Source of the DNA: Raphidiopsis brookii D9
GTDB lineage: Bacteria; Cyanobacteriota; Cyanobacteriia; Cyanobacteriales; Nostocaceae
DNA length: 32,000 bases
Assembly (NCBI GenBank): GCA_000175855.1
Contig: ACYB01000001.1
Location: 1-32,000 of the forward strand
Direction of reading: 5' to 3'
The notes below the pieces were generated by a model, which was not told the origin of the DNA, searched no databases, and was given only the letters and a program-made list of their open reading frames with translations. Every line of letters starts with the position of its first letter. The stretch's first letter is position 1. The position numbers and the translations under genes are program-made. Shown piece by piece: positions 837-12,213 of this stretch.

Positions 837-2177
837 CTATTTTTTCCACTGAGATGCTTTTTCTAAATCTGCCATTTTTAAATCGCTACCCTCATAAACT
901 AGTCCTTTAAATCGACAGTAGTTATATGCTACACCATCATCTAAATCTAGTTTAATTCGAGCATCGGCTAAATGTTGCAGTTTTTCTTGATATTCTGCTA
1001 GTTCTGACTGTTGGTCTTGTAATTCTTTGAGACGCTTACTAGCAATTTTTTTATCTGCATTGTTGGTGCTGATTTCCAGTTGTTTTTGATATTTAGTGAT
1101 TTCTCCTTCTAGTTTGATTTGCAGTTCTAACACATAGTCTGTGCGCATACGAGCCAGGGCATCTTCCTGGTAACGGTGTAAATAGATTAAGGCATTAAAG
1201 GCTCGTTTTTTTCCGCTAGTGAATAACCAGTATATGGGACGTTTTTTATAGGTTTGGATATGGTCGGAGATAAATTCTTGCAGAAAGTAGCGTTGGATCC
1301 TTTCTCGCGGACTTTCCCCATTTTTGAGGGTGAGGGTGTCAGCAATAAATTTCAGGTTTTCGCTGCAAGTATCTGCACTGTAGGCAATTTGGATAAATTC
1401 TTCAAAACGGGTAATGATGTCATCGGTAAAATAGGTTTGATCTGTGATGGGAATTATGGCATGATTGCTAGCTGGGAACTGTTGGTGGAGAGATGGGTCA
1501 AAGGGGTTTCCAGCATGAATGATGCCAGGTTTGTCAAGACTATACCTGCCCATGATACAACCTACTATGTAGGACAGGAGGGAACGGATATCTCGTTGTT
1601 GATCTGCACGGTTGATTGTAATTTGGTCTTCTGGGACTTCTGGAGTTAATTCTGTTTCTAGTCCGTAGGTTTGGATCCAGTAGCGGTTATTTTCTTCTTC
1701 TAGGAGTTGCAGTTGTCGGAATGCGGTTTCTGATTGGTTTTGCCATTGGGTGAAGCATTGGGAGATGGAGGGGGAATTGTGGCGCAATAATGGATGGGTT
1801 AGGAAGTCCCAGGAGGTTTCAAGGTTATCCCAATCTTGACGAGAAATGTTAATTGCCTGATCTATATTTTCAGTGATCTTAATTTGGGCTGTGTCGATAG
1901 TATTATTAAGTATTGGAAAATTTGATATTTGTCCAACTTCAAAATTTAATGTTGGAGAAAGTGAGCCTGTTGTACCATTCATAACAGGTGAATTCATCAC
2001 TCCTAAAATTGCTTTAATTATAGTTTTATCATTTGAAAATATTGACATACCTGCATCCGCAAAAATAAACCCTTGGGGATAAAATCTCAACGAAAAATAA
2101 CTACTTGTTACCTTGGACCAACTTACACTTTCTTTAAAATATTTATCTGTATTTTGGGGACGTGATCTAGGTTTCAT
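837..2177 (-). pseudogene. pglX: pglX fragment: C-terminal portion (446-aa ORF; the frame stays open upstream to about 2310)
   Basis: Reading the same frame upstream of 2177 gives 'KKWFPYNKGGEFRKWYGNQQYVVNWENDGFEIRNFGIEYG' before the first Met. The C-terminal 'LDLDDGVAYNYCRFKG' matches the typical PglX tail. Confidence 0.85.
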
Positions 2178-2277
2178 TCCATATTCAATGCCAAAATTAC
2201 GAATCTCAAAACCATCATTTTCCCAATTAACAACATATTGTTGATTCCCATACCATTTTCTAAATTCTCCGCCTTTA

Positions 2278-4458
2278 TTATAGGGAAACCATTTTTTTCC
2301 AGATTTTTTTAGCAGCTTCCCGGTTATCTAATCCAAACCCTATATTATTAATATTAACTTCTGTCCATAAGCGCAAAAATTTATCATTATTGCCGGTTTG
2401 CAATCCAACACATGGAGATGCAATATCATTTAGAGGTTTAGATTCCTGAAAAATCTCTAAAACTCTCTCACTTACCCAATAGGCGATCGCACTTCCTGGA
2501 ATTTTAGAGAAATTTTCTGATGTGACATAAAAGACACCTGTACCATCTGAGGACTTTGCATTACGAACATTATTCATTGCGGGAAATATTTTTGGTTTTT
2601 CACCATTTTCATCTAAATCTTCTGTTTCAATCCATGTATATGAACCAATACAATTTTGATTATCTTTTTTACGTAAACTAAAAGCGGAAGTGCCGAAAGC
2701 AATTTTCATTACATTATTATCCATGTGAAGCAATGTCAGAATTGAATAATCATTTAATATATGTTTCCTCAAATGTTCATAGCTACTCAAAAACATCCAT
2801 GATTGCATAACTACCATTGCTGTCATTCCTTCATCTCTGGTTATTTTAATCAACCGTTCCATGAAAACGGCAAATAAATCTCCTTTACTTTTTTTGTAGT
2901 ATTTTTCGGCAAAAGATTTAATGGTTTCGTTAAAACTCCTATTACCCATATAGGGAGGATTTGCGACCACTACCCAATACTTATTAGTCAATAATTCAGC
3001 TTGACGAATTAAACTATCTAAAAAAGCAATATCTTTTCCCTTCAAAATAGGATTACTCAACTCCAAATCTGCCAATTGCTTTCTCAAAATAGTGCCATCA
3101 AAAGATGGCGGTGTGATCAAACTTCCTAAATTATCTGCATCTACAAAAGCACCCAGTAATGGTTGCCAATCCTTCTCCATCAATTTCCCTGTAGTTGGTA
3201 ACTTATACCCCCGTGTACAGCGCACAGTTTTAATATTCAAAGCAGGAACATTCCTAAAAATACGCTTATTTATAGCCCTTGCCTTCATTAAAACTGCAAA
3301 ACTCGCTAACTGTACAGCTCTCTCATCTATGTCCAATCCATACAAATTGTGACTCAGGATAAGTCCGGGAATATCCTTTTCCAAATATCCCTGCTCCTTA
3401 TAAATTTCCATCAATAAATCGAAAGCATAGACCAAAATATGTCCACTTCCACAAGCAGGATCAATTACTGTTAACTCCTCCGGTGTCAAAGCAATTCCTG
3501 GACTTACCTTTTCTTTCAACAATCCCAACAATGGAGCTGTATCCGATACTTTTGATTCTTCTTGTTCTTCCCCACCCCTGATTTTTTCACCCTCCAAATA
3601 ATAGGGCATTTTTTCCCGTAATTTTGATTGGGGGTGGTTTTCTAACCATAACCTACCTAAACTATTTTCCACCATATACTGCACAATCCACCGAGGTGTG
3701 AATAGTTGGGTTGCTGCTGGTATATCCTTAGCTTCTACCTTAGATTTGGCTCCAATTACCTGGTCTTTGCGCTCAGAAATATAAAATTGATATAGCCATC
3801 CCACTATCTCTATATCTTCCCATTCCTCCTGGGCAATTTCTTTCACCAGTCTCCCAATGATTGAATCTTGACCTAGTAGATTAACTGGCAAAAGTAATGC
3901 TGGATACCTCGTATCAAACAAGGCTGGTATACTAGAAGACAAAGCCTGACATTGAGCTAATAATAATTGACGATATAGATATTCTTCTGGGTTGGTCTGT
4001 TGACTTGCTAGATCCTCCCATTGTTTTAGGGTTTGTTGGTTAATTCCAGCTATTTCTCCCGTGTCTGCTATGGAATCCCTATCTCGCAAAATGTCTGGAT
4101 CTACCAAATTGCGATCGCTACTACTTAAAACCCTTCCGATGTAGCCTTTAACCTCCATAAAGCGCAGTGCTACTAATCGGTTAAACCAGGTATAGGCAAT
4201 TTCCTCAACAAGTATATCCAGCACACTATTAGCTTGTTTGTTTAACTGTTTATCTAAATTTTTAGATACTTGTTGTTCTAATAAATATTTTATATGAGAT
4301 TGTAGTTCTTGATATTGTGTAGCTTCTTGGCTATTGAGTGTTTGTTCCCCACTTAATAAACCTCCTGCAAAATTCCTCTGGTCAGTAATGGTTTTTCCGT
4401 AATGGCAAGTTGGGTAGCACGTGTGCTTACCTGTTCTCTTAGATGGTTCCGTGCCCAA
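2278..4458 (-). pseudogene. pglX: pglX fragment: N-terminal and methyltransferase-core portion (the 726-aa ORF in the track; its first ~22 aa are out-of-frame artefact)
   Basis: The track ORF begins at a TTG, and its residues 'MGTEPSKRTGKHTCYPTCHYGK' overlap the genuine N-terminus, which is encoded in another frame from the ATG at 4490. The fragment contains the NPPY and SAM-binding motifs. Confidence 0.85.
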
Positions 4459-4541
4459 ATGGCAAAGTTCTTGATAGTGGTTCTATTCATATACAAAAGT
4501 TTAATACTAATTTTATTTTTTATTTTTTTATTTTTGACTTT

Positions 4542-4564
4542 TCCCTGGGTTTTTAAACCAGGGA
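4542..4564. other. 7-bp hairpin (tccctgg / ccaggga) next to a ~36-nt T/A tract (4505-4540), between the RNase T2 stop and the pglX start
   Basis: Inverted repeat seen directly. Neither strand has a U-run 3' of the stem, so it is not called as an intrinsic terminator. Confidence 0.5.
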
Positions 4565-4585
4565 ATCTACTGCAGTAAAAAATCT

Positions 4586-5344
4586 TTATTGTGTTAAATT
4601 ACTAACCCCAAACCCATCAACCACAACTTGATTACAAGACTGACCACCACTAGGAAGTAGGAGATCTGCCAGTTTTTGACCAGACTGAGGGCGTTTGATT
4701 TTTAGACGAATTTCTGTGGCAAGATTGTTCGTAGAATCGCATTTAAGGTTCAAACTGGAAGAACTACCACTGCCAAAAGTTCCTTCAAATGCTGTTTTTA
4801 CCTGATCTAGGGAGACTGTTTCACCTATGTGCTCAATAAATAAATTTCGCACTTGAGAATCATTAAATTCCTTCAGTAGGTCTACGGATAGATCATAGTA
4901 ATTATCTGAGTTTCTCCCATCACAGGTTCCATGTTTGATCCATTCATGACGTTCAAGACTAGACTCTCCAAAACCTGGCATTACTTCATCTAATTCATCA
5001 GTAGTTTCCGTATCTACCTCCACTATGGGTAAATCTTTCCAGTTCCCGGTTTTGTCGTTCTCTATATAACTAGCAGAAACATTGCAGTATTCCAGCTTAT
5101 CTGGCCATAATCCATGCAAAGTGAAGTTATTAGCATCGTAACTGGTTGCTGTTTGTTCCTGACATTCTGCTTTGTACCCATGGGTTTCACAAAATCCAGG
5201 TTGCCAGGATAGTGCTAAAGTATATTTTTGAGCGCATCCTTTCGGGGGACAATTATCTGCTATTGCAGTTCCTTGATTAGTAAGTAAGAAAGCTAGTACA
5301 CATGCTACTACTAGTCTTAACGATTGCATAATTCGTACAGTCAT
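4586..5344 (-). CDS. RNase T2 family ribonuclease (RNase I-like) with an N-terminal signal peptide
   Basis: Both catalytic signatures are present: CAS I 'NFTLHGLWPD' and CAS II 'LERHEWIKHGTCDG'. There are 8 Cys. The N-terminus 'MTVRIMQSLRLVVACVLAFLLTNQGTAIA/DN' is signal-peptide-like. The start is set at ATG 5344; the track ORF extends to a GTG at 5368. Confidence 0.9.
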   Translation of the reverse strand: MTVRIMQSLRLVVACVLAFLLTNQGTAIADNCPPKGCAQKYTLALSWQPGFCETHGYKAECQEQTATSYDANNFTLHGLWPDKLEYCNVSASYIENDKTGNWKDLPIVEVDTETTDELDEVMPGFGESSLERHEWIKHGTCDGRNSDNYYDLSVDLLKEFNDSQVRNLFIEHIGETVSLDQVKTAFEGTFGSGSSSSLNLKCDSTNNLATEIRLKIKRPQSGQKLADLLLPSGGQSCNQVVVDGFGVSNLTQ

Positions 5345-5425
5345 AAGTTTAAACTCGCTAGAAAACACACAAAATTTATCACGTTATTATAGAACTGTTG
5401 GGTATAGAATAAATCCACTTGTCAA

Positions 5426-8400
5426 TCATCTTTCCAAACGGATTCTGCAACCTCTTTGAATCTGTTTGAGAAATTCTTCCCGCAATGCTCCCAGATACAC
5501 CTCCACATCTTCTTCATTTTCTAGCACTTTGGTGGGATTAAATCTCCCCACCTGAATGAAGGTGATGGGTTTTGCTGCATGATATGACTTACCCAATTCT
5601 TCTTGAACCTTTTGAGCTTTACCATCTATTTTCTTCCATAACTGGTTTGTCTTGTCGCTTAATTCACTCCGATGGGCGATCGCTGAATCAATAGTTTTTA
5701 TTTCCGATGGGTGAAAATTTTTTATCTCCTGGGGGATCTCAGAAATTTCATTGGCAATTGCTGGGTATTGCTTTTGAATATAATCCCGCATTTCTTTTTC
5801 TTGGTTTTCCATTTCTTGCTGCAGTTCCCCAATCTTTTGTCGGAGGAGTTCCTGTATTTTTTGCTGCACGGGTTCCAGCAATTTTGGCAACTGGTGTATT
5901 ACGCTAGTTGGGTCATCCATCTTGAGAATTTCCTCAACGGATTTTACCCGCTCTAGCAGTTCCTCTTCCTCGATATGGCGCAGTTCTGATTTCAACTCTT
6001 TTAAACTCTGTTGAGCTCCTTGAAATATTTTCAGTTGTGAGTTAAAGAAAGACTTTAACTTTTGTAACTCATCAATATATTCTTCCAGGTCATCCCGACG
6101 ACTACGAACAAGCTGCAAAAACTCCGGTTCATGAGAGTTGTCGGTTCTTAGCTCTTCTAGCATAGCTATGTGGTGTCCCAGCAAATTCCCAAATGGTAAT
6201 TGCTGTTCTTGAGTCAGTTTTAACCATTCTTTTAACCTTTCAACATGGTCCCATAAGAATTCTTTATATGTTTGAAATAGTTTTCCACTCTCCGTAGGTA
6301 TGTCTAGTATATTCTTATCAAGTAATTTACTGGCTAAGTCCCTAGCTACCTTTAAACTAGCTGGATCAATGGTACTAGCCAATTTCACAATATAAGTTTC
6401 TTTCCCCTCACGAGAAAGTAACTTATCTATTAATCCTTCTTCTATATTGACCTTACCTTGTGCGTGTCTCAATTCAACTACACCTGCATTAGCCAATTCT
6501 GCCATTATCCCTAGGGTGTCTAGTTCTGACCAACCATAGGGAGTACGGGTAAACTTATCCATTAAAGATTTAATCGTAGTTGGATGATATTTATTTTGAC
6601 TATGCAAAAAAGATTCCATCTCTTTGTGTGCGGATATATTAACTACCTTATCCGCATCTCCATCGATAGTCCTTTCTTGGATATGACGGGTTAAGGCATT
6701 TTTCACCTGCTCTGGATTTTCAAATCCACTATGGATGTATTGTAACTTGCTATAAGCATTCTTAATTAAATAGGTAAGAGATTGTTTTAACAACTCTGTT
6801 GCAAATTCAGTTCGAGTAATTTCTACTTTATTGCCATAACTAAACACATCCGCACTGGCAATGAGTTTTTTTAGGGTATCTTTGATATTTTCCTCCCGCT
6901 GTGTATTTTCCTCTTTTCGTCCTGCTATAATTTTTTGAATACTAGGACTAAGATTACTACTAGTTTTTTGGCGCAAATACTGATCTGTTTGACTAAACGT
7001 CTCTAAATCTTGCAAAAAGTGATTGTTGTTCCCTATCCTAATTAATAATTCTAAACTGGACTGGGTTGTGATTATACACTTTTCGTTATTCTCAAATTCA
7101 GCATAGTTCTCTCCATAGGGAGTAATAATATGCACAGTCAGTTCTTGTAATTTCTTTCCATAATCACGTTCATCTAACTTACGATTAAATGAATACTTAC
7201 GTTTACCAAATTTGAATTCCCTATCGGTCAAAATTGATTCCCACACCCATTCCTGCAGTTTTTTGTAAATCTCCGTTGGGTTCACCCTTGTGTTTTTAAT
7301 TTCTTTACCAATATCTTGCTCTTCGTTTGTAAGAAATATGTACTCATCTGTATTACGCTGAATTAGGGTTTGTTTTTCCAATCTTCCTAGGGCTTCTGCT
7401 ACTTGTTTTTTCAAACCTAGTCTGTCTTGGTCTATATTGGTTAAACTCAAGGTAGTTAAGTTTTCTATGTTTGTCCTAATCTCTTTAATATATTTAATCA
7501 TAAATAGGGTTTTTAAGAGCTGAATATCAAACTCCTCTAGTTGGGGATTATTCGTAGCCTGAGTAATCACCTGACTAATAACACTATCCAAAAAACCCTC
7601 AATTGCCAAATAAAAAGTATGAAAAGGAACTAACCTACCCAGGGATTGTGCGGAAATTGCTTGAGAAGCAACCTGAAAAGCATCCAGTAAGGAGCGCTCT
7701 CCCGATGCTAAATGTTTACCCGCCGAACCCATTAACCGAATTTGGGTAAACACCTTCTGCAACAGATAAAACTGATAGGGAATAAACGGATAGGCTGCCA
7801 CAAAATCCTGTGCATTCTTATACCCTGGCATATCTGCAGAGTCCTTAAAGGTGATTTGGTTTGTGAGAATGGCAATTTTTTCGGTATATAAATCTTCTAA
7901 ACGTTTTTTGGCTTCCTCAGTTTTAGACAATAACCGTAATTTAATCACCTCATCAGTATTAGCAGAAGATAAATTCAGGGGACGATGAAAACGCCCAATA
8001 ATTTTCGAGAAGTCTTCCCCCTTGATTTTATTTTTGGTGATTTCATCCATAGCTTCTTGGGATGTGACCACCACCCAAGCTCTTCCCTGACTATGGATAC
8101 CCAGATCTTCCACTACTGTTTGCAGATTGAGCATTAATTTGGTGTCTTCGCCAATATACTGACCTACTTCATCTACCATAAAAACTAGGCGATGTTTTGG
8201 TCCCTTGGTGTGCAAATACTCTTTAACTGTTTTGGCAAACTCTTCTGGACTTAAAGTATATTTCTCATTGAACTCTAATAGGCGATTAGCTTGTTCTTCA
8301 CTCATTCCTGTGCTAACTGTTAAAGCAGCAACAATATCATCTTGATAAAAAGCCCAAGCTTCTCGAGTTTCTTCCCAGGATTGTTTGGTTTGGCTATAAA

Positions 8401-8968
8401 AAGCCTCTTTGAAGGACTGATACTTACCCTGACTTTCTAATTGACGTTCAAACCGGGCAATTTCCGGTGTTGTGCCAAAATATCCCAAATGGTCGTCAAA
8501 GACTTTTTGGAATACCTTGGTAATGGTTTCTTTGTCATTTTTATTATTGGCATCGGCCTTAGAATCAATATTAAAGAGAATTACATCACAATGAGTTTGT
8601 GCTGCTAAGGCAATATTTGCCAATAGGGATGGGTCGGGAATTCTTTGGGAATCAAAGTAATCTAAAGCCCGATTATTTCCCACTGAACGATTTTCTAGTA
8701 GATAGGAAAGTATTTTGAGGAAATGAGATTTGCCAGAACCAAAGAATCCCGAAATCCACACGCCCATCTGGTCGGTTGGACTTTCAATTGATTCGGCAAA
8801 TCTGCCAAAAAAAGTATAAAAATGCTTCTTGAGTTCTTCGGTAACTACATACTCTTCTAACTCTTGACGAATATTAGTATCATCCTGCTGTCCCACCTTG
8901 ATGACACCATTAATACTGCGGTTAATATCCTTGGCAAACAGTTCAGTAATGTTCATAGACAGCTCCAT
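5426..8968 (-). CDS. brxC: BREX system P-loop ATPase BrxC/PglY
   Basis: 1180 aa. N-terminus 'NITELFAKDINRSINGVIKVGQ' and Walker A 'GFFGSGKSHFLK', with a long helical C-terminal region. It lies between brxB and pglX. An alternative start at ATG 8956 (MNITELF) is plausible. It overlaps the brxB 3' end by 14-26 nt. Confidence 0.9.
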   Translation of the reverse strand: MELSMNITELFAKDINRSINGVIKVGQQDDTNIRQELEEYVVTEELKKHFYTFFGRFAESIESPTDQMGVWISGFFGSGKSHFLKILSYLLENRSVGNNRALDYFDSQRIPDPSLLANIALAAQTHCDVILFNIDSKADANNKNDKETITKVFQKVFDDHLGYFGTTPEIARFERQLESQGKYQSFKEAFYSQTKQSWEETREAWAFYQDDIVAALTVSTGMSEEQANRLLEFNEKYTLSPEEFAKTVKEYLHTKGPKHRLVFMVDEVGQYIGEDTKLMLNLQTVVEDLGIHSQGRAWVVVTSQEAMDEITKNKIKGEDFSKIIGRFHRPLNLSSANTDEVIKLRLLSKTEEAKKRLEDLYTEKIAILTNQITFKDSADMPGYKNAQDFVAAYPFIPYQFYLLQKVFTQIRLMGSAGKHLASGERSLLDAFQVASQAISAQSLGRLVPFHTFYLAIEGFLDSVISQVITQATNNPQLEEFDIQLLKTLFMIKYIKEIRTNIENLTTLSLTNIDQDRLGLKKQVAEALGRLEKQTLIQRNTDEYIFLTNEEQDIGKEIKNTRVNPTEIYKKLQEWVWESILTDREFKFGKRKYSFNRKLDERDYGKKLQELTVHIITPYGENYAEFENNEKCIITTQSSLELLIRIGNNNHFLQDLETFSQTDQYLRQKTSSNLSPSIQKIIAGRKEENTQREENIKDTLKKLIASADVFSYGNKVEITRTEFATELLKQSLTYLIKNAYSKLQYIHSGFENPEQVKNALTRHIQERTIDGDADKVVNISAHKEMESFLHSQNKYHPTTIKSLMDKFTRTPYGWSELDTLGIMAELANAGVVELRHAQGKVNIEEGLIDKLLSREGKETYIVKLASTIDPASLKVARDLASKLLDKNILDIPTESGKLFQTYKEFLWDHVERLKEWLKLTQEQQLPFGNLLGHHIAMLEELRTDNSHEPEFLQLVRSRRDDLEEYIDELQKLKSFFNSQLKIFQGAQQSLKELKSELRHIEEEELLERVKSVEEILKMDDPTSVIHQLPKLLEPVQQKIQELLRQKIGELQQEMENQEKEMRDYIQKQYPAIANEISEIPQEIKNFHPSEIKTIDSAIAHRSELSDKTNQLWKKIDGKAQKVQEELGKSYHAAKPITFIQVGRFNPTKVLENEEDVEVYLGALREEFLKQIQRGCRIRLER

Positions 8969-9545
8969 GATGAGGTATTAAAGCGAAAGCTCGATAGTAG
9001 TTATCACTTTTAAAGGTATTAAATAAACAGAGTTCATGTCCATCATAGGATCCGGGGAAGAACAGCACTAAGGGAATGTGGTCAAGATAAGGTTGGAGAC
9101 CATTCAAAATACTGTGGGATCTAATTAGGGGCCAACTCGCTCCAACTCCAGTCAGGAATACCAATTGTTCGTTCCCTTGGAGGTGGTTTTGGATCTGAGC
9201 AATCACCTTTTCGGGTCGAACTATGGATTGGATTTTATTCCCGAGAGATTTGCACCCTTCTTTCGCTTCTACCATAAAAGCTTTATTGAGAATTCCTTTT
9301 TCTTGTAATAGTTCTAGGATTATCTTATACAGATTGAATTCTTTAACGATTAAATTTATTGGATCCTTAGTTAGTTGGGAAACAAGTACTTTAGTATATT
9401 CTTGAACATATAGTTCGTCTTCTGGAGCATAATCAAAAACATAGAAACCAATCTCATTGCCAATACCACGATTTTCCAACAGTCGGGAGTCTTGTAGTTT
9501 AGGTAGTAGTTGATTTAATCGTTCCTGAATACTCAATTTAGACAT
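8943..9545 (-). CDS. brxB: BREX protein BrxB (DUF1788 family)
   Basis: 200 aa, immediately upstream of and overlapping brxC. The features 'IGFYVFDYAPEDE' and the C-terminal 'LVLFFPGSYDGHELCLFNTFKSDNYYRAFAL' match my recollection of DUF1788. Confidence 0.8.
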   Translation of the reverse strand: MSKLSIQERLNQLLPKLQDSRLLENRGIGNEIGFYVFDYAPEDELYVQEYTKVLVSQLTKDPINLIVKEFNLYKIILELLQEKGILNKAFMVEAKEGCKSLGNKIQSIVRPEKVIAQIQNHLQGNEQLVFLTGVGASWPLIRSHSILNGLQPYLDHIPLVLFFPGSYDGHELCLFNTFKSDNYYRAFALIPHHGAVYEHY

Positions 9546-9646
9546 CTGTTTTAGGTTAGCAGCACTAAAGACTTAGTATAACAGGCGATCGCATTTTTGA
9601 GGAGAGACTATTATATTTTGTGTTATGTTTTATTCGGAGAGGTTTG

Positions 9647-9671
9647 CAGACCGTAGCGTGGTTCTTGGGTA
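9647..9671. repeat. Direct repeat copy 1: 'cagaccgtagcgtggttcttgggta'
   Basis: Matches 9761-9784 with 1 substitution and 1 indel. The two copies lie 114 bp apart and flank a hairpin (9685-9727). Confidence 0.7.
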
Positions 9672-9760
9672 TCACTATAGGTTAGACTTTACATGTTTTG
9701 ACAGTAGGGAAACCCATTGGTAAAGTCAAAGCGCTAGGATCATTCAACCAGTTGGGTCGA

Positions 9761-9784
9761 CAGACCGTAGCGCGGTTCTGGGTA
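9761..9784. repeat. Direct repeat copy 2: 'cagaccgtagcgcggttctgggta'
   Basis: See 9647-9671. Confidence 0.7.
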
Positions 9785-9792
9785 ATATCCAC

Positions 9793-9945
9793 TTACCAGG
9801 ATGCTAACCTACGTCTTTTATAGGGCACACCCGTAAAAGGTTGAAAACCAGTTATGGGATAAGCATCATCGGTGGGGCTGAATATGCGCATAAAAGCTTC
9901 ACTGAGGAATTGAACGACTCTGGAAAGCGATTTGGAGATCATCAT
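9793..9945 (-). CDS. Small hypothetical protein (50 aa) with a strong Shine-Dalgarno sequence
   Basis: Below the track cutoff. Sequence 'MMISKSLSRVVQFLSEAFMRIFSPTDDAYPITGFQPFTGVPYKRRRLASW', preceded by AAGGAG 9 nt upstream of the ATG. I cannot name a family. Confidence 0.35.
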   Translation of the reverse strand: MMISKSLSRVVQFLSEAFMRIFSPTDDAYPITGFQPFTGVPYKRRRLASW

Positions 9946-10186
9946 AAATTTCGACTCCTTATTATTATGCTATTTATTTGATGTACCTGCAGTGTAATAC
10001 CAAATCTTGGGACTGACTCATTTTTGTAATATATATATAAGTAACTCAACTTTTCTTAAAAGTCCAATTAAAAGCTCAATTGGAGTAGTTTTAGGTGAGT
10101 TTTATTGGTATAAAATAAACTTGAGATTATCTTTATTACAGAAAATATAGTCTTGCTGTCCACCTTATGAGTAGGAAACTAGAGAA

Positions 10187-10970: not shown

Positions 10971-11031
10971 ATTAAGATAGGCAATATTGGGTTTTCTCAA
11001 CCCAACCTACAGTTACCTACAACAAAACCAA

Positions 11032-12213
11032 ATGACCGACTATAGAAAAGAAATCCTATCTGGAGAATCCGAAGAACTGGAATTTAAACGCTCCACGTCT
11101 CTACTAAAAGAAGCTACCCAGACTCTATGTGCTTTTGCTAATCACAAAGGCGGTGTACTGTACTTTGGTGTATCCGATGACGGAACTGTGGTTGGGCAAA
11201 TGGTAAGTGATGATACATTAAAAAACATTGCTAATACCATTAAGCTCAACACAGATCCCAAACTGTATCCCCAAGTGGAAAAAGTGGAGATTGAAGGCAA
11301 ATCTTGTATTCGGGTATGCATTGAGCAGAGCCCATTAAAACCCCATGTTGCCTATGGCAGACCCTATATCCGGATTGGCCCCACCACCCAGCAGTTAGAT
11401 CAGGAGCAGTACCGAATCCTGCTCCAACAAAGAACCAACGGTTATGGATTTGATTTCCAGTCTTGTCCTAGTGCCACTTTAGCAGATATAGACGAAACAA
11501 CCGTGCAAAGGTTCATGGAAACAGCCAATGCTGTCCGTGATTTCAATCAGAACCTCTACCTACCAGTTGATCAGGTTATGGAAAAGCTGGATCTAGTCAA
11601 GAATGACGCAGTTAGCAATGCAGCAGTGCTTCTTTTTGGAAAAAACCCCGCCTGCTTCTTTTCCACCCACTATGAGGTCAAGGTGGCAAGTTTTCCTACA
11701 GATATGGGTTATGATGAAATGACAAATAATTATGAGTATACAGGTAATTTACTCGATATTTTTGGCAAGTCTATGGATTTCCTTTTGGGTAGCATAAGGA
11801 AATCATATAGGAAGGGCGAACAACAAGGTGTTGAAATTCTTGAATTCCCCAGGTTGATGCTGCGGGAGGCTTTGGTCAATCTGATTTCCCACCGAGATTA
11901 CCGTGTGGATGTTAAATCCACCATCGAAGTCAGACCCTCCTATATTCTTTTCTACAACCCTGCTCAACTGTTTACGCCCACTATTACTATTGACGCTCTC
12001 AAGCGACACCATCCATCAAGACCTGGTAATAAATTAATCGCCAGAGTGTTTTATATGATGGGTTTGTTTGAGAACTGGGGTGGGGGCACACTCAAGATTA
12101 TTGAAAGTGCTAGAGAAAGTACGGGTATAGACCCAGAGTTTACCTTTGAAAATGGTATGTTTTCCTTGAAGATTTATCGAAAACCAACTAATGTCAACCA
12201 ATGTGTGATGTGA
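11032..12213 (+). CDS. AlbA_2 (Schlafen-type, 'divergent AAA') + HATPase_c_4 domain ATP-binding protein / putative regulator
   Basis: N-terminal 'ESEELEFKRS...LCAFANHKGGVLYFGVSDDGTVVG' is the AlbA_2 signature. C-terminal 'REALVNLISHRDY ... PGNKLIARVFYMMGLFENWGGGT' is the HATPase_c_4-type signature. The start is set at ATG 11032; the track ORF begins at a TTG at 10987. Confidence 0.8.
   Translation: MTDYRKEILSGESEELEFKRSTSLLKEATQTLCAFANHKGGVLYFGVSDDGTVVGQMVSDDTLKNIANTIKLNTDPKLYPQVEKVEIEGKSCIRVCIEQSPLKPHVAYGRPYIRIGPTTQQLDQEQYRILLQQRTNGYGFDFQSCPSATLADIDETTVQRFMETANAVRDFNQNLYLPVDQVMEKLDLVKNDAVSNAAVLLFGKNPACFFSTHYEVKVASFPTDMGYDEMTNNYEYTGNLLDIFGKSMDFLLGSIRKSYRKGEQQGVEILEFPRLMLREALVNLISHRDYRVDVKSTIEVRPSYILFYNPAQLFTPTITIDALKRHHPSRPGNKLIARVFYMMGLFENWGGGTLKIIESARESTGIDPEFTFENGMFSLKIYRKPTNVNQCVM

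Follow-up and report, generated by a model that had tools for sequence, protein, structure and literature searches.

A predicted exported RNase T2 gene between brxC and pglX in Cylindrospermopsis/Raphidiopsis: a probable long-term passenger of a BREX-1 operon

The first 32,000 nucleotides of contig ACYB01000001.1 of Raphidiopsis brookii D9, the whole stretch analysed here and called the window throughout, carry on the minus strand part of a type 1 bacteriophage exclusion (BREX-1) operon, with a gene of the ribonuclease (RNase) T2 family lodged inside it. The order on that strand is brxB, brxC, the RNase gene and pglX in two pieces (2278-4458 and 837-2177). This physical association of an RNase T2 gene with BREX is real, extends through the genus and is undescribed; the RNase itself, as argued below, is probably an ordinary exported enzyme that has long travelled within the operon. 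The features on which the argument rests are the following.

8943 to 9545, minus strand: brxB, intact, 200 residues.
5426 to 8968, minus strand: brxC, intact, 1180 residues; PADLOC BrxC match of 1303 bits.
5345 to 5425, minus strand: spacer of 81 nucleotides (nt) between brxC and the RNase gene.
4586 to 5344, minus strand: coding sequence of the RNase T2 (RNase I-like), 252 residues from the ATG at 5344; matches to PF00445 and 2EA1.
5258 to 5344, minus strand: Sec-type signal peptide, residues 1-29, predicted cleavage AIA/DN (hydropathy and motif heuristic).
5099 to 5125, minus strand: conserved active-site segment (CAS) I, FTLHGLWPD, with the catalytic His (motif and alignment).
4922 to 4948, minus strand: CAS II, HEWIKHGTC, with His, Glu, Lys and His (motif and alignment).
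4541 to 4565, minus strand: 8-bp hairpin 3' of the RNase stop codon; unlike in a canonical terminator, the tract after it is rich in A and not in U.
837 to 4490, minus strand: pglX, interrupted by a single-base frameshift in each of two A-runs, otherwise a clean ORF (open reading frame) of 1217 residues.

A sequence-only reading of this DNA had described the gene as an intact secreted RNase T2 with both catalytic signatures, a signal peptide ending AIA/DN and eight cysteines, and this description holds. The maximal ORF (4586-5368, minus strand) starts with a GTG at 5368 and encodes 260 residues; the ATG at 5344 is the likely start of a protein of 252 residues, and the GenBank product of the gene in D9 (EFA74473.1, locus tag CRD_00003) likewise has 252. 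The BrxB and GUN4 proteins encoded in the window also match D9 entries with full identity. The ORF matches the Pfam family PF00445 (Ribonuclease_T2) with E = 5.8e-19 and 69.4 bits, against a curated cut-off of 26, and thus belongs to the family. Its top match by sequence among solved structures is Escherichia coli RNase I (2EA1, E = 1.8e-25), with both catalytic motifs aligned. The protein is related to RNase I and yet is not an RNase I equivalog, since the NCBIfam ribonuclease I model (NF007502, an equivalog) gives 105 bits, below its cut-off of 436. In an alignment of 24 homologues (alignment numbering), H78, H134, E135 and H139 are invariant and K138 is nearly so, as are without exception six of the eight cysteines of the mature part (C53, C62, C88, C142, C203 and C238); one further cysteine lies in the signal peptide. 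The gene is intact and its catalytic set complete. The cluster of RNase sequences at 90% identity has 76 members, the named ones from strains of Cylindrospermopsis raciborskii, C. curvispora and Raphidiopsis curvata, and nearly all members listed are 246-260 residues long.

The N-terminus of the RNase has the anatomy of a signal peptide, with a positive n-region (MTVRIMQSLR, including two Arg), a hydrophobic core (LVVACVLAFLL) whose mean Kyte-Doolittle value is >3, and the stretch TNQGTAIA, which provides an A-x-A motif for cleavage before DN. The assignment to the Sec type is a heuristic check of hydropathy and motif; the signal peptide is kept across all lineages compared. The product is most plausibly a Sec-exported protein, predicted to be periplasmic or extracellular.

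The RNase gene is co-directional with its neighbours and lies, as had been proposed, between the brxC stop codon (5426-5428) and the pglX start codon, the ATG at 4490, which was confirmed by tblastn, an intact Nostoc PglX matching there over its residues 1-35. The neighbouring pglX (its fragment in D9 is locus tag CRD_00002) is indeed broken, by two frameshifts in A-runs and with no further lesions. The first run has five A at 4392-4396, versus six in three relatives, and the second has seven at 2304-2310, versus six in a close relative, the chromosome-scale contig L095. Applying both fixes gives an uninterrupted PglX ORF of 1217 residues, and pglX as an old pseudogene was rejected on this ground. 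All other window genes checked are intact; from run counts, the probability that both lesions fall in pglX is about (27/164)^2 = 0.03, so that their coincidence exceeds the expectation from uniform homopolymer error. The lesions are recent mutations, phase variation or sequencing errors, and not the product of long decay. The window contains neither pglZ nor brxL. A claim that D9 is without these two genes was nevertheless rejected, since CRD_00002 and CRD_00003 belong to pglX and the RNase gene, so that the window seems to begin close to one end of its source contig.

Wherever BREX is retained among the Cylindrospermopsis/Raphidiopsis loci fetched, the RNase occupies the slot between brxC and pglX, and this holds for DNA identities as low as about 91%. 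It follows brxC directly in the chromosome-scale contigs L095 and L096 (GCA_002321935.1 and GCA_002321945.1; 98-99%), in the metagenome contigs L001-L010 (about 92%), in a Joint Genome Institute (JGI) metagenome contig (L098; 91%) and in the chromosome-scale records L139 (GCA_051062915.1) and L141 (CP073250.1), both at 91.5%. The last two are complete genomes with fully intact BREX-1 loci, in the order 50-residue ORF-brxB-brxC-RNase-pglX-pglZ-brxL and no brxA called; brxC encodes 1189 residues, the RNase gene 251, pglX 1217 or 1212, pglZ 872 and brxL 672. Loci that are intact with the RNase in place show that the operon was not in decay when the RNase arrived. Between the window and the lineage at about 92% identity, the synonymous divergence (dS) is 0.21 for the RNase gene and 0.18 for both brxB and brxC, and the ratio of nonsynonymous to synonymous divergence (dN/dS) is 0.21, 0.18 and 0.23, respectively. 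Across eight sequences the RNase dN/dS is 0.15-0.26, and none of the eight copies is disrupted. Because its dS is like that of brxB and brxC, the RNase was in the slot before the sampled lineages split, and purifying selection has acted ever since on the RNase gene as well as on the BREX genes beside it.

This timing bears directly on one of the two explanations offered by the sequence-only reading, namely that the RNase is unrelated cargo which came to lie in an operon under decay. Such a view could appeal to the frameshifted pglX of the window, to L095, in which pglZ and brxL do not adjoin pglX, and to the full deletion of BREX from R. curvata NIES-932, described below. However, the insertion is older than a split at dS of about 0.2, a time over which brxB and brxC have evolved at dN/dS of 0.18-0.26; intact six-gene loci carry the RNase; the window pglX shows two homopolymer lesions and no further decay; and the decay is confined to individual strains and postdates the insertion. 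A recent landing in a decaying operon is thus refuted on timing, both by dS and by the intact L139 and L141 loci, and the explanation as a whole is hardly credible. Its other half survives: the RNase is probably unrelated cargo, but cargo that was inserted before the lineages diverged and that still sits in an intact operon in places. Broken brxC genes in L095 and L096 were set aside as evidence of decay, since other genes are also split and the bases gained or lost against the window are all in homopolymers, a pattern suggestive of sequencing error. These two contigs split many genes, brxC and PglZ in both and dnaX, S1, DUF29 and adh_short also in L095, and a run of N lies inside the pglX of L096; pseudogenes apparent in them are not to be relied on.

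The decisive evidence comes from strains in which BREX has been deleted. In R. curvata NIES-932 (complete genome AP018317.1, L142) and in two independent metagenome contigs (L143 and L144), BREX is gone and the RNase is intact. The order in all three is QueE, the 50-residue ORF, a brxC remnant (its final ~280 bp), the spacer and the RNase gene, intact at 251 residues; in NIES-932 there follow the hairpin, an element resembling a miniature inverted-repeat transposable element (MITE) and a Schlafen gene, while L143 and L144 end in or just after the hairpin-MITE region. Alignment to L139 resolves two deletions, one of 3.9 kb that took brxB and most of brxC and one of 8.4 kb that took pglX, pglZ and brxL. 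The brxC remnant shows that BREX was formerly present. The RNase has three conservative amino-acid changes only and keeps all catalytic residues. That both flanks were lost and the 756-bp RNase gene was kept argues that the RNase is kept for a reason unconnected with BREX; in L142, L143 and L144 its fate is not tied to that of BREX.

The same genomes already disfavour the other explanation originally offered, and the one preferred there, in which the RNase co-operates with BrxC and PglX as a genuine accessory or back-up effector of BREX. By position it qualifies, since it lies within the core BREX genes, as does a BREX auxiliary effector in the sense of PMC12839542, and BREX loci are reported there to recruit auxiliary HEPN, PIN and Schlafen RNases. 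The three genes brxC, RNase and pglX are co-directional, with short spacers and no predicted terminator between them; the slot is conserved over about 9% DNA divergence, with dS as in brxB and brxC; and the intact BREX-1 loci L139 and L141 include the RNase. Yet the RNase stays intact where every BREX gene has been deleted, and it carries an export signal. BREX is understood to act on phage DNA in the cytoplasm, so that predicted export would take the RNase away from the site of BREX action and counts against a functional link.

The comparison with other genomes points the same way. The assumption that brxC and pglX adjoin each other in canonical BREX-1 is borne out by 26 of 27 BREX-1 loci outside the genus, in which the gap is 18-143 bp, and none of the 27 has an RNase T2. 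The slot is without RNase even in the closest BREX relatives, a Nostoc genome (L137) and a sequencing-run contig (L138), with BrxC identity of 60-61%. From the side of the enzyme, recurrent linkage of RNase T2 to BREX was looked for at 80 related RNase T2 loci from species-representative genomes (a sample from 600 stretches listed, with Cylindrospermopsis itself not included), and brxB, brxC or pglX was found by tblastn with window proteins only, within ≤10 kb of flank on each side, at none of them (0/80). There is thus no association of RNase T2 with BREX across diverse taxa among the loci listed, and an accessory role in BREX is very unlikely.

The closest orthologues outside the genus, among the matches listed, are those of Sphaerospermopsis, Trichormus and Anabaena azotica (64-68% identity), none with BREX nearby. 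They occupy an unrelated and conserved context: Sphaerospermopsis and Trichormus share the order 141-residue secreted protein (hyp141)-RNase-Uma2-RecJ, and in A. azotica the 141-residue gene is likewise immediately upstream of the RNase T2 gene. The genus RNase falls within the RNase T2 clade of Nostocales, where its branch is comparatively long. A second RNase paralogue attributable to the genus was not found among the 120 matches listed. The G+C content of the RNase gene shows no anomaly and matches that of its neighbours, so that composition hints at no recent arrival from elsewhere; repeats beside the gene that might be insertion scars amounted to short two-copy matches of 11-16 nt, consistent with chance; and viral contigs yielded only giant-virus homologues of 26-30% identity, with no sign of phage carriage. 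The 141-residue protein has a signal-peptide-like N-terminus and is 80-82% identical among its three copies (L011 9427-9852, L012 9383-9808 and L016 9098-9520); its gene is absent from the Cylindrospermopsis RNase loci. This protein might act as a partner of the RNase, or inhibit it.

We therefore favour, with a probability of roughly two in three, the reading that the RNase is a long-term passenger in the BREX operon and an ordinary exported RNase T2. It would be a disulfide-bonded and catalytically competent enzyme, exported through Sec and of the same type as E. coli RNase I, presumably acting in the periplasm or outside the cell and there scavenging nucleotides and phosphate. Its gene would descend from the RNase T2 of sister Nostocales and would have moved into the spacer between brxC and pglX in an ancestor common to the Cylindrospermopsis/Raphidiopsis lineages sampled. 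With no terminator beside it, the gene is probably transcribed together with the BREX operon or inside it, and would be maintained by selection for its own function, neither needing BREX nor being needed by it.

Several points weigh against this reading. The position of the RNase within BREX is conserved throughout the genus, the fully intact BREX-1 loci L139 and L141 included. Cargo carried inside BREX loci often serves defence, and the sole other occupied brxC-pglX slot found holds SoFic, a defence gene with a Fic domain (distant locus L136, 2215-3387; PADLOC E = 2e-112). The branch leading to the genus is long, with 67-70% identity against 83-89% among the sister genera, and this could reflect a changed role of the RNase. 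Finally, Acinetobacter baumannii RnaA, a periplasmic RNase T2 homologue, alters phage susceptibility (PMC10249906).

Several of these points count in favour of another explanation, in which the RNase is a defence or phage-susceptibility factor of its own, residing in a defence island and independent of BREX. Acting at the envelope, it might degrade incoming or released RNA, enter the cytoplasm when the envelope is damaged, or take part in envelope signalling of the kind proposed for RnaA. The island is variable, with BREX, Schlafen, AbiEi, a PLDc protein, an AAA_12 protein and a PDDEXK_9 ATPase in different strains; the RNase persists beside Schlafen after the loss of BREX in NIES-932; and the SoFic-bearing slot, the long branch and the effect of RnaA on phage Loki (PMC10249906) can all be cited in its support. 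On the other hand, the RNase is intact in every genus locus fetched while the surrounding defence genes vary, its orthologues lie in a stable non-defence neighbourhood, and PADLOC-DB v2 models gave no family at E ≤ 0.01 for either the window RNase or its L139 orthologue. Moreover, RnaA is reported to be non-catalytic and to work via BfmRS, for which no search was made here, whereas the window RNase keeps its catalytic residues. We regard a standalone defence factor as possible but unlikely. The narrower proposal, that this RNase T2 is an envelope-acting, BREX-independent determinant of phage susceptibility that was captured by the defence island and outlives it, would have the protein destroy incoming or released RNA or signal the state of the envelope in the manner of RnaA; we consider it doubtful, and more so than the general form.

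Upstream of the RNase, the sequence-only reading had noted a TTGACA abutting the brxC stop and a TATAAT, too far apart for a standard sigma70-type pair; both motifs are present (5420-5425 and 5386-5391), with 28 nt between them, and a promoter of the gene's own is at most a proposal. The conserved part of the spacer consists of the TATAAT-bearing unit (5386-5391) plus GTGATAAATTTTGTGTGTTTTCTA, whereas the TTGACA is specific to the window lineage and absent from the other, and it was rejected as a -35 element for this lack of conservation. A scan for promoters and terminators over 4300-5700 on the coding strand returned no sigma70-type pair and no intrinsic terminator, with fewer matches than in shuffled sequence. 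An internal RNase promoter with a -10 element only is possible. The TATAAT belongs to a 14-nt unit, ATAATGTGATAAAT, about 40 nt upstream of the RNase ATG, which is present in one degenerate copy in the window lineage, in two copies in L139, L141 and L144 and in three in L142 and L143 (window 5372-5391; L139 8968-9030; L142 9930-9995); its copy number may tune RNase expression. The downstream hairpin and tract noted earlier were also recovered; the hairpin stem is conserved in three lineages and its loop varies. As no terminator flanks the RNase gene, co-transcription with the BREX operon is plausible. In NIES-932 the first deletion brings the sequence that immediately precedes brxB up against what is left of brxC, so that either promoter, upstream or internal, could drive the RNase gene there.

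Downstream of the RNase hairpin, the lineage at about 92% identity has a palindrome-rich insert of ~125 bp with short inverted ends (AGTAAGT...ACTTACT), located between the hairpin and the pglX start (L139 9876-9995, L141, L142 10845-10955 and the ends of L001-L010) and absent from the window. Metagenome assemblies break within this insert.

The pglX gene itself varies between strains in two ways. All single-base indels lie in runs of at least five A or T, each assembly having its own set (window sites 4392-4396, 2304-2310, ~2380, ~1248, ~1213 and ~1053); they could be sequencing errors, or slippage-prone tracts able to switch BREX off and on. Comparison of window 837-4490 with L095, L096, L139 and L141 further revealed that PglX is mosaic among conspecific strains, with full-length proteins 74-77% identical to that of the window and flanking genes 91-98% identical in DNA. 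Blocks at window ~2229-2719 and ~1886-2008 differ in L096 and L095, respectively, and the pattern looks like a swap of the target-recognition region, which would alter methylation specificity. Directly after the pglX stop, where pglZ follows in intact loci, the window has two tandem copies of a ~436-bp element (18-827), 89-96% alike and each bounded by G/C-rich inverted repeats, CCCCCCAACCCCCCTTAAAAAGGGGGG; these elements look like MITEs.

Two further features of the island lie upstream of brxB in the window.

9793 to 9945, minus strand: conserved ORF of 50 residues upstream of brxB, retained in BREX-less strains.
10987 to 12213, plus strand: Schlafen gene with AlbA_2 and HATPase_c_4 domains.

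The 50-residue ORF, between a QueE-like gene and brxB, is conserved at 96% identity with dN/dS of 0.06 and is kept in NIES-932; it has no family match in Pfam, NCBIfam or PADLOC. A brxA-like ORF is missing from the window, all three frames upstream of brxB (9546-10186) being full of stops, and no brxA-like gene lies upstream of brxB in the cyanobacterial BREX-1 loci L137, L138 and L139. The same upstream region of the window contains two copies of a short motif resembling GAACCGCGCTACGGTCTG. The Schlafen gene is of a class reported as a widespread BREX-linked RNase (PMC12839542). It stands upstream of the QueE-like gene in the window and in L095, versus directly after brxL in intact loci, where a copy 95% identical is found (L139 18351-19514); the differing position indicates that the island has been rearranged. 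Other variants of the island include DUF2357, AAA_12, PLD-domain (PLDc) and AbiEi genes in L096 (1-7400 and 18246-19159) and an AAA-ATPase_like/PDDEXK_9 gene in NIES-932 (L142 6667-8220). In the related BREX loci, the space between pglX and pglZ holds an AAA_15/21 ATPase in the Nostoc genome L137 (17221-19095) and, in L138 (8356-14546), a helicase, DarT and a partial gene with an ADP-ribosylglycohydrolase domain, distinct from DarG, the macrodomain antitoxin.

If the passenger reading is true, the locus is a caution against annotation by guilt of association, as a gene can remain for long, and throughout a genus, in the middle of a defence operon and not be part of its system. The BREX-1 operon evidently tolerates an insert of 0.9-1.0 kb between brxC and pglX, which otherwise are almost always adjacent. 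The strains also form a natural genotype series, from intact BREX with RNase, through BREX with pglX frameshifted in homopolymers, to deletion of BREX on both sides with the RNase kept; this series is a comparison set for BREX function and for the role of the RNase in an ecologically important toxic bloom-former. Should the minority reading prove true instead, an extracytoplasmic RNase would be added to the defence repertoire, and RNase T2 would become a new extracytoplasmic class of defence-island protein.

Among known proteins, E. coli RNase I (rna, 2EA1/2PQX) resembles the window RNase in its alignable CAS I and CAS II motifs, N-terminal signal peptide and eight cysteines. Enzymes of the RNase I type cleave single-stranded RNA without specificity, by way of 2',3'-cyclic phosphate intermediates, and both proteins would be expected to be non-specific periplasmic endoribonucleases acting via 2',3'-cyclic phosphates. 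They differ in the first position of CAS II, which is His in the window RNase and Tyr in RNase I; the two are only distant kin, and the window gene lies inside a BREX operon. The enzyme properties given here are well established and come in part from PMC8765455. The RnaA protein of A. baumannii is likewise a periplasmic member of the RNase T2 family with eight cysteines and a link to phage susceptibility: its loss raises susceptibility to phage Loki and its overexpression blocks infection, and it is reported to be non-catalytic and to act through BfmRS two-component control of capsule (PMC10249906). Unlike RnaA, the window RNase retains all catalytic residues; a BfmRS-like signalling partner was not searched for.

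The auxiliary nucleases of BREX (PARIS OLD/TOPRIM, GmrSD/BrxU, HEPN, PIN and Schlafen) share with the window RNase a co-directional position within the core BREX set. To our knowledge, these families have no export signal. The window RNase is unlike them in its predicted export, its restriction to one genus and its retention after BREX deletion; the auxiliary families recur over many taxa (PMC12839542). The nucleases embedded in BREX loci according to that 2026 survey belong to the restriction endonuclease (REase), HNH, OLD/TOPRIM, HKD, HEPN, PIN and Schlafen families, and RNase T2 is absent from its main text and from the six supplementary files in text form. No description of RNase T2 with BREX was found in the literature, in agreement with the sequence-only reading, to which no described BREX subtype with such a partner was known. 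The Nostocales orthologues (Sphaerospermopsis aphanizomenoides, Trichormus sp. NMC-1 and A. azotica) belong to the same clade and have the same catalytic residues and cysteines; the window RNase and the Sphaerospermopsis protein are moreover both without the ~90-residue N-terminal domain present in many relatives. These orthologues differ in having a non-BREX neighbourhood, and from them the Cylindrospermopsis copy is set apart by its longer branch.

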